Source of the DNA: Escherichia coli
Lineage (GTDB): Bacteria > Pseudomonadota > Gammaproteobacteria > Enterobacterales > Enterobacteriaceae
DNA length: 906 bases
Direction: 5' to 3' (one strand)
NCBI RefSeq assembly: GCF_003334385.1
Contig: NZ_QOWN01000142.1
The first letter of the stretch is position 1. Each line of letters begins with the position of its first letter. The position numbers and the translations under genes are program-made. Of this stretch, positions 1 to 906 are shown piece after piece. The notes beneath the pieces were generated by a model. The model ran no database searches. It saw only the letters and a program-made list of their open reading frames with translations, and had not been told where the DNA came from.

Positions 1-906
1 AATCCGGTCATAGTCCATTGCCTGTGTCAGCATGGAGGCATACAGGGGGACTTCTGCACGATAAGCATTTTCACTGCGCAGATACCAGCTCTCATCACTG
101 TCCCGGTTGAGGGAGTAGTTAAAGGCACCGGCCTGCAGCTTATTCCCCTGGATAAAGGCCCCTTCCTCCGTGGTGGCACCGTTAATGGCTTCCACCACCT
201 GAATACCCTTACCGCTGGTCGCCAGCCCCGACGCACTGTTGCCGGCGTTCACCAGGTTCAGGATGGTTTTTCCGGTTGCCCTGCCACCGTCAATGACCAG
301 TCTGTCAGCATTGTTCTGTGCCATATCCGGGCGTACACGCAGGCTGATGGTGCCATTCTGCCCGTTCAGGTTTTTCACTTTCAGGGTTGCCGGTACGAAC
401 TTCCCTGTGCGGGTGGAGGTGAAATGAATCTGTCCGGCATGGCTGAGGTCATCCACCACCGACTGCACCGTGGCGTTATCGGGAATATTCCAGGTGGCAC
501 CAGAGGCGAGAGTGACATTCGTGGGGTCAATGGCACCGTTCAGCACAGTGCTGCCGGTCAGCTTCAGGGCTGTACCGCGCTGAGCAATGACATCCGTGGT
601 GACGGTACTGTCGTTCAGCGTCAGCGTGCCTTCATTCAGGTTGACGGCTTTCTGGGTGAGTGTGGTGTTGCTGACAGTGAGTGTGCCACTTCCTGATTTT
701 TCCACGCTGCCGTTACCGGTGAGAGAGCCTCCCTGCAGGAGTGCATCGCCTTCACGGATGGTCAGGGTATCGTTGTTCACCGTCTTCCCGGAAAGGGTAA
801 GTATGGCGCCGTTATTCAGCGTGGTGGTGCCCGCCAGTGTGCCGCCCCTGGCGGTGAACAGTCCGCCATTTACCGTGGTATCCGTGGCCGTATCACCGGC
901 GTTCAG
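1..906 (-). CDS. flu: Antigen 43 (Ag43) family self-associating autotransporter adhesin, internal fragment partial at both ends (5' end of gene beyond position 906, 3' end beyond position 1); covers C-terminal passenger beta-helix, autochaperone-like region and start of translocator domain
   Basis: Seen in sequence: the minus-strand frame with codons 906..904, 903..901 ... 3..1 has no stop codon across all 302 codons. Its translation is LNAGDTATDTTVNGGLFTARGGTLAGTTTLNNGAILTLSGKTVNNDTLTIREGDALLQGGSLTGNGSVEKSGSGTLTVSNTTLTQKAVNLNEGTLTLNDSTVTTDVIAQRGTALKLTGSTVLNGAIDPTNVTLASGATWNIPDNATVQSVVDDLSHAGQIHFTSTRTGKFVPATLKVKNLNGQNGTISLRVRPDMAQNNADRLVIDGGRATGKTILNLVNAGNSASGLATSGKGIQVVEAINGATTEEGAFIQGNKLQAGAFNYSLNRDSDESWYLRSENAYRAEVPLYASMLTQAMDYDRI. 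Composition is Thr/Gly/Leu/Asn/Ser-rich with no Cys, and short T-L-T / L-N-x-G beta-strand and turn motifs recur, as in AIDA-I-type beta-helical passengers. Established knowledge (recalled, no search run): this stretch, notably ...HFTSTRTGKFVPATLKVKNLNGQNGTISLRVRPDMAQNNADRLVIDGG... and ...NYSLNRDSDESWYLRSENAYRAEVPLYASMLTQAMDYDRI, matches my recollection of E. coli Ag43. No in-window start or stop, so both ends are truncated by the window. Confidence 0.88.
   Translation of the reverse strand, partial: MNAGDTATDTTVNGGLFTARGGTLAGTTTLNNGAILTLSGKTVNNDTLTIREGDALLQGGSLTGNGSVEKSGSGTLTVSNTTLTQKAVNLNEGTLTLNDSTVTTDVIAQRGTALKLTGSTVLNGAIDPTNVTLASGATWNIPDNATVQSVVDDLSHAGQIHFTSTRTGKFVPATLKVKNLNGQNGTISLRVRPDMAQNNADRLVIDGGRATGKTILNLVNAGNSASGLATSGKGIQVVEAINGATTEEGAFIQGNKLQAGAFNYSLNRDSDESWYLRSENAYRAEVPLYASMLTQAMDYDRI

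Follow-up and report, generated by a model that had tools for sequence, protein, structure and literature searches.

Ag43 is among the best-studied autotransporters, and its processing site, its autochaperone (AC) domain and its linker have already been dealt with in the literature. The long form, known as Flu or Agn43 in K-12 and as Ag43a in UPEC CFT073, comprises 1039-1040 aa in the arrangement EJ1-BL1-AC1 (SF-I). For Ag43a, Edman sequencing gave P-T-N-V-T as the N-terminus of beta43, and exchange of the Asp at the processing site for Ala abolished both cleavage and heat release; moreover, the purified, urea-solubilised protein splits itself into two fragments when refolded in detergent, and both fragments co-purify once cleaved (preprint, bioRxiv 10.1101/2025.04.08.647479). 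For K-12, residues 552-1039 are given as the "naturally cleaved C-terminal fragment" Ag43-beta in a further publication (PMC11341756), and a construct of Ag43b (55-553) was designed from its empirically determined cleavage site (Vo et al., PMC8993888). It has also been described that cleavage of Ag43 comes after folding and needs no other protein, and that alpha43 stays bound non-covalently and is freed at 60°C. The AC domain surfaces first and is required for the folding of the beta-helix, and the barrel loops L4 and L5 make the AC domain fold faster. The site, the dependence on Asp, self-cleavage in vitro and non-covalent retention have been shown in these published experiments, and the Asp-Pro bond is a known and well-documented alpha43/beta43 processing site.

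Several other proteins resemble this system to a different extent. The short Ag43/Cah proteins (948-949 aa; Cah of EHEC EDL933, Ag43 of UTI89; 7KOH, 7KO9; SF-II) belong to the same family; their processing sites are stated as unknown (Vo et al., PMC8993888). Like Ag43, AIDA-I is composed of a beta-helix, an AC/junction region, a linker and a barrel, is processed autocatalytically and keeps its passenger non-covalently. The SPATE-type proteins (EspP, Hbp, Pet) share with Ag43 the type Va organisation, the beta-helical passenger, the AC domain and autocatalytic release. SPATEs, however, are cut inside the barrel pore within the linker, whereas Ag43 is cut extracellularly, upstream of the AC domain. 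Consequently, the AC domain of a SPATE leaves with the passenger, whereas that of Ag43 remains with the barrel. Autocatalytic, folding-dependent cleavage of an Asp-Pro bond is also known from FrpC of Neisseria meningitidis, a type I secreted RTX protein, and from the GDPH sites of mucins. These are unrelated proteins with unrelated folds; what FrpC has in common with Ag43 is confined to the chemistry at the scissile bond. FrpC in addition requires calcium and can form Asp-Lys cross-links; nothing alike is known for Ag43.

The window analysed here is a stretch of 906 nt from Escherichia coli, whose minus strand is a single open frame of 302 codons without a stop. At the nucleotide level it is 99.9% identical to the annotated agn43 gene of many E. 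coli chromosomes. By megablast the window was matched in 4,089 of 5,426 complete E. coli genomes, and full-length matches of at least 96.6% identity were present in about 2,390 genomes, where the gene is always annotated as agn43 or autotransporter adhesin Ag43 (PGAP names the full gene agn43). The closest genome matches are one base off; in strain 118UI this is a synonymous change (GGA -> GGG) at nt 361 in Gly codon 182. The translation can be placed on the 1039-aa proteins of strain 118UI (WP_000820391.1; autotransporter adhesin Ag43 according to PGAP) and of K-12 MG1655 (Flu, b2000) without a gap. It is identical to the former (302/302 aa, 100%) and differs from the latter in two residues (300/302 aa; V676I and R680K), both at least 125 residues away from the Asp-Pro site. 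The initial annotation had estimated that the window covers about residues 425-726 of the 1039-aa protein, and on both proteins this is exactly the interval found. The NCBIfam model NF033177 (auto_Ag43) scored 315.6 bits with the translation (E 7.7e-94); its curated cutoff of 1200 bits applies to the full length and is out of reach because the window is a fragment of 302 aa only.

Eight open reading frames of 30-90 aa in other frames or on the opposite strand were dismissed as shadows of the agn43 frame. A scan of the window against Rfam gave no match, and no compositional break was found within it. Apart from one trivial 25-nt repeat in two copies and a short palindrome the window contains no repeats.

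From these comparisons we are nearly certain that the window is residues 425-726 of Ag43 and contains the last rungs of alpha43, the self-cleaving Asp551-Pro552 bond, the AC part of beta43 and the start of the linker. It derives from the same gene as the long Ag43 proteins, with the same D|PTNVT site, AC domain and linker, and no functional difference between them was apparent. The features are collected in Table 1.

Table 1. Features assigned in the 906-nt window
Feature	Position (nt)	Strand	Evidence
Stretch from within agn43 (flu), codons 425-726 of Ag43 (autotransporter adhesin of 1039 aa)	1..906	-	Open frame, nt and aa identity
Beta-helix rungs at the C-terminal end of the alpha43 passenger, residues 425-551 (bottom of the L)	526..906	-	4KH3 identity, weak AIDA match, AF2 strands
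Motif around the site, L-N-G-A-I-D-P-T-N-V-T-L-A-S-G-A-T-W-N	487..543	-	Homolog alignments
Scissile Asp551-Pro552 bond, alpha43/beta43 autoprocessing site	523..528	-	Unique DP and published processing data
N-terminal extracellular part of beta43: further beta-helix rungs and autochaperone (AC) domain	73..522	-	Pfam, AF2, AC-region matches
Beta-hairpin capping the AC domain: strands at aa 262-268 and aa 274-282, with D-S-D-E-S as turn	61..123	-	AF2/DSSP, conservation
Alpha-helical linker through the barrel pore, first 18 residues (709-726)	1..54	-	AF2 model, published helix start

The initial annotation had singled out the sequence AIDPTNV as holding the only Asp-Pro dipeptide of the translation and as a candidate for the alpha43/beta43 processing site. 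The Asp codon (GAC, nt 526-528) and the Pro codon (CCC, nt 523-525) lie on the minus strand where it had put them. One Asp-Pro in the window compares with 0.28 expected from the content of Asp and Pro, and it is likewise the sole one in full-length K-12 Flu and in Ag43 of 118UI, where it occupies residues 551/552. This agrees with the position that had been given for K-12 processing, and the bond there is indeed an Asp-Pro. In the preprint on Ag43a the bond is numbered D552/P553 (bioRxiv 10.1101/2025.04.08.647479). A 1040-aa allele likewise has its only Asp-Pro at 552/553, and the Ag43a numbering is therefore one ahead of that of the 1039-aa form of the window.

The crystallised alpha43 construct of Ag43a (PDB 4KH3) stops at ...LNGAID, and its residues 377-503 are 100% identical to window aa 1-127 (127/127). 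Alignment to K-12 Ag43 and the published beta43 N-terminus agree on a beta43 subunit starting with PTNVT, so AID-PTNVT stands in this allele at the position homologous to the characterised cut. The assignment as processing site is borne out by the N-terminal sequencing of beta43, the Asp-to-Ala mutant and the cleavage of the refolded protein. The identity to Ag43a is established for aa 1-127 and for the sequenced P-T-N-V-T that follows, and judging from this similarity the allele in the window should behave like Ag43a and K-12 Ag43. A chance dipeptide unrelated to processing was also considered; it was rejected, as the 1039 residues hold no second Asp-Pro and the position matches both the beta43 N-terminus and the end of crystallised alpha43.

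The Asp-Pro dipeptide is not confined to Ag43. A phmmer search against 1.84 billion cluster representatives returned 952 relatives at E <=0.001, of which the best 150 were examined. Among these, 124 stretches cover the site and 74 have an Asp-Pro exactly aligned to that of the window. The consensus around it reads L-x-L-x-N-G-A-x-L-T-G-x-I-D-P-x-D-V-x-I-D-x-x-S-x-W-N, with I or V preceding the Asp. Restricting the same 150 to distant homologs (<60% identity, >=200 aligned residues) left 90 sequences, 56 of which keep the dipeptide; at 30-55% identity the retention is 56-62%. In these 90 homologs 183 Asp-Pro dipeptides were counted against 127 expected from composition, and hence the whole excess corresponds to the 56 at this site. 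In a separate MAFFT alignment 22 of 39 rows carry the dipeptide. It is kept, for example, in plasmid-encoded homologs, as NGAIDPTDV in Enterobacter asburiae and as TGSIDPTDV in Pantoea ananatis, and a Burkholderia homolog has VDPS at the site; homologs of Yersinia ruckeri, Caballeronia and Agrobacterium pusense are without it. Eight representatives bearing the dipeptide were scanned against NCBIfam; none reached the cutoff of a named family, and all are autotransporters of a generic Ag43/AIDA-like kind.

We considered two alternatives why this motif is kept in distant autotransporters. First, the Asp-Pro of Ag43 could be one case of a self-cleavage motif that is widespread in a large proteobacterial subfamily of AIDA/Ag43-like proteins, lies about 20 residues upstream of AC-1 and has so far gone undescribed. 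We put this forward tentatively, as a reading that falls somewhat short of being probable. Second, the IDP-x-D motif could be kept mainly for structure, as a turn of the beta-helix ahead of the AC domain, with self-cleavage special to the long Ag43 alleles. In conservation the columns of the Asp and the Pro take ranks 72 and 98 of 302, a moderate level far below that of the glycines of the AC core, Y264, W274 and L276, so that the fold does not depend on the motif. This lower conservation compared with the AC core, together with the lack of the dipeptide in 38% of the distant homologs, in AIDA-I and in short Ag43/Cah, favours a mainly structural role. On the other hand, a labile dipeptide is the majority state at this exact position over 30-55% identity, and the site accounts for the entire excess of Asp-Pro in the homologs. 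A mainly structural role has a serious chance of being correct, without being the probable answer. It does not contradict self-cleavage at the Asp-Pro bond as the explanation for the window itself.

In the literature covered, conservation of the motif was described neither for Asp-Pro bonds in connection with autotransporters, where FrpC alone came up, nor in the definition of the AC domain or in two reviews, and it may still have been published elsewhere.

For Ag43 itself, folding and cleavage probably proceed as follows. After Sec export and insertion of the barrel, the AC domain would reach the surface first, fold against the barrel loops L4/L5 and serve as the template on which the passenger beta-helix stacks up from C to N. 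After the helix has folded, the bond between Asp551 and Pro552 would break without an external protease. Alpha43 (53-551) would then remain stacked non-covalently on beta43 (552-1039) and detach only on mild heating. The linker helix threads the 12-stranded barrel. By analogy to other Asp-Pro self-processors such as FrpC, the side-chain carboxylate of the Asp may attack its own peptide carbonyl to form a cyclic anhydride, with the proline as leaving group. The retention of alpha43 would be explained by the continuity of the modelled beta-helix across the cut, since the last rungs of alpha43 would stack on the first rungs of beta43.

A separate outer-membrane or periplasmic protease such as OmpT, cutting at or near the bond, is a very improbable source of the two subunits. 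Many autotransporters are released by other proteases, and Ag43 is indeed cut by OmpT within the AC domain if its folding is delayed. The OmpT product, however, is a different fragment of about 66 kDa, and the normal alpha and beta products remain in an ompT deletion strain. Furthermore, urea-solubilised Ag43 refolded in detergent in the absence of other proteins still gives a beta43 starting with PTNVT. That the break at the Asp-Pro bond is a preparation artefact, with the subunits arising in sample handling and not on the cell, can practically be dismissed: Asp-Pro bonds are indeed chemically labile to heat and acid, but intact cells release alpha43 at 60°C and the cut therefore pre-exists, on the same gels unfolded protein is uncleaved and refolded protein cleaved, and the fragments co-purify after refolding.

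We searched the translation for domains and modelled its structure. Pfam AC_1 (PF18883) matches window aa 149-266 (nt 109-462, E 3.7e-19) and Pfam Pertactin (PF03212) matches aa 157-277 (nt 76-438, E 4.5e-12), in agreement with the pertactin/autochaperone-like segment initially placed at about nt 97-522. There is also a weak match to the Pfam AIDA repeat at aa 2-33, and the AC region has sequence matches to 7KO9, 7KOH and IcsA 3ML3. Along full-length K-12 Flu, the Pfam matches are the ESPR (PF13018, residues 6-49), AIDA repeats (98-457), AC_1 (573-690) and the beta-domain of autotransporters (PF03797, 766-1015). Of the two domains by which the junction had been expected to be delimited, PF03212 is thus in the window and PF03797 is present only beyond residue 726. 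PF03797 starts 40 residues past the window's end, and the autochaperone-to-translocator junction claimed for this interval lies only partly inside it: the end of the AC domain, the hairpin cap and the first 18 residues of the linker are contained, the barrel is not.

An AlphaFold2 model of residues 425-1039 was calculated from an alignment of 40 sequences of diverse homologs (mean pLDDT 90.4, pTM 0.81). It consists of short beta-helix strands from window aa 6 to about aa 259, unbroken across the cut at aa 127/128; the scissile D127 closes a two-residue strand (126-127) and P128 starts the turn toward the strand 130-133. The beta-helix is followed by a hairpin with the strands FNYSLNR and WYLRSENAY and by an alpha-helix at aa 285-305 (residues 709-729), which is entered at nt 54 and exits the window. 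The first strand of the barrel is predicted from aa 319 (residue 743), past the end of the window at residue 726. This succession is what had been looked for in a structure prediction, a beta-helix that ends and a linker helix that begins within the fragment. The start of the helix agrees with that of about residue 710 in a published construct based on secondary structure (PMC5802855).

The sequence ESWYLRS is indeed found at nt 73-93 with D-S-D ahead of it (nt 94-102), and it had been suggested that the motif DSDESWYLRS precedes the linker. In the model the helix begins seven residues later, so the order holds, and the motif (nt 73-102) can be placed more exactly: it supplies the turn and the second strand in the AC domain's hairpin cap and is not itself part of the linker. 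Among the 90 distant homologs taken from the best 150 of 952, the hairpin does not vary at Y264, W274 and L276, and its L266 is conserved to 99%. Against the PDB, Foldseek matched the model to autotransporter barrels, namely EspP (3SLJ), the best structural match of the modelled barrel, and 4MEE, the transport unit of AIDA-I (TM-score 0.83 on target). It also returned 7KOH and 7KO9, which are structures of the Ag43 passenger and AC domain.

The protein has the organisation of a type Va autotransporter. A beta-helical passenger followed by an AC-1 domain is found in the window, as indicated by the AC_1 match and the hairpin-capped beta-helix of the model. The helical linker and the C-terminal barrel are found in the full-length protein, with the window holding only the start of the helix (aa 285-302). 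The N-terminal Sec signal peptide of the ESPR type is present in full-length K-12 Flu and is located outside the window, as is the self-association stem (SL subdomain, residues ~53-300).

The comparison with AIDA-I shows that architecture and outcome are common to both proteins and that the site is not. AIDA-I (1287-aa allele of plasmid pGD17-2, L007 994-4854) is 29% identical across the window, and its transport unit 4MEE is matched by the modelled barrel fold of Ag43. It has no Asp-Pro at the Ag43 site, where the aligned residues are ...INGSVNNNGS... Its junction K-E-S/A-G-N-T-L, which we take to be the Ser846/Ala847 processing site, aligns about 45 residues downstream of the Ag43 cut (window aa ~172-174, nt ~385-393) and directly precedes the first strand of the AC core. 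Ag43 is cut not at this position but at aa 127/128. By its title, the 2009 work of Charbonneau et al. attributes the autoprocessing of AIDA-I to acidic residues of the junction region. As to the Asp-Pro self-processors outside the autotransporters, no Pfam or NCBIfam match of the window or of full-length Flu pointed to homology with the FrpC module.

The short Ag43/Cah proteins share with the window the AC core, the hairpin (DSDE-D/S-WYLRSEN), the linker and the barrel. At the DNA level their similarity to the window does not begin until about aa 179. According to the protein alignment they are without about 91 residues, among them the final rungs of the passenger and the Asp-Pro motif. No Asp-Pro was found anywhere in the two short proteins inspected (L004 1465-4308 and L005 1337-4183), and these proteins must therefore be cut elsewhere or by another mechanism.

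Ag43 proteins of K-12 and 118UI, compared over their whole length, share 58-66% identity over about residues 100-300, the self-association stem, and 96-100% from about residue 350 to the C-terminus. The agn43 alleles are thus mosaic, in line with published work in which SL subdomains are shuffled while the EJ-BL-AC modules that they join are conserved.

Copies of agn43 were found at a median of 2 places per genome and at up to 7. In the flanks of the six loci inspected (L001-L006) a GTPase-family gene is consistently located upstream of agn43, and the genes after it comprise yeeR/yeeS/yeeT, antirestriction, DUF932 and IrmA-family genes and the cbtA/cbeA toxin-antitoxin genes. The latter set is typical of CP4-44-like islands and, together with the copy number, is consistent with an island-borne multicopy spread. 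One of these loci, from E. coli IAL7255 (L006 1843-3591), carries a truncated agn43 pseudogene. A copy with a translation 100% identical to that of the window was also found in PLSDB on the "plasmid" NZ_CP134663.1; with 4,902,913 bp this entry is probably a mislabelled chromosome.

For Ag43 the window confirms the annotation, and the practical yield consists of exact boundaries: the cleavage site at nt 523-528, the AC domain at nt 109-462, the hairpin cap at nt 61-123 and the helix from nt 54. The one point found that goes beyond the literature covered, and the only lead worth pursuing, is the family-wide conservation of the Asp-Pro. If it does mark a self-cleavage motif, the majority of these unnamed proteins (600-2800 aa) would, like Ag43, be divided into a passenger held non-covalently and an anchor of AC domain plus barrel, and the motif-free lineages, short Ag43/Cah and AIDA-I, would have lost the motif or substituted another site. 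Should the homologs also cleave themselves, the motif would offer a simple way to predict from sequence which AIDA/Ag43-like adhesins are two-chain complexes at the surface. Such a prediction would be relevant to the engineering of surface display and to vaccine antigens released by mild heating.
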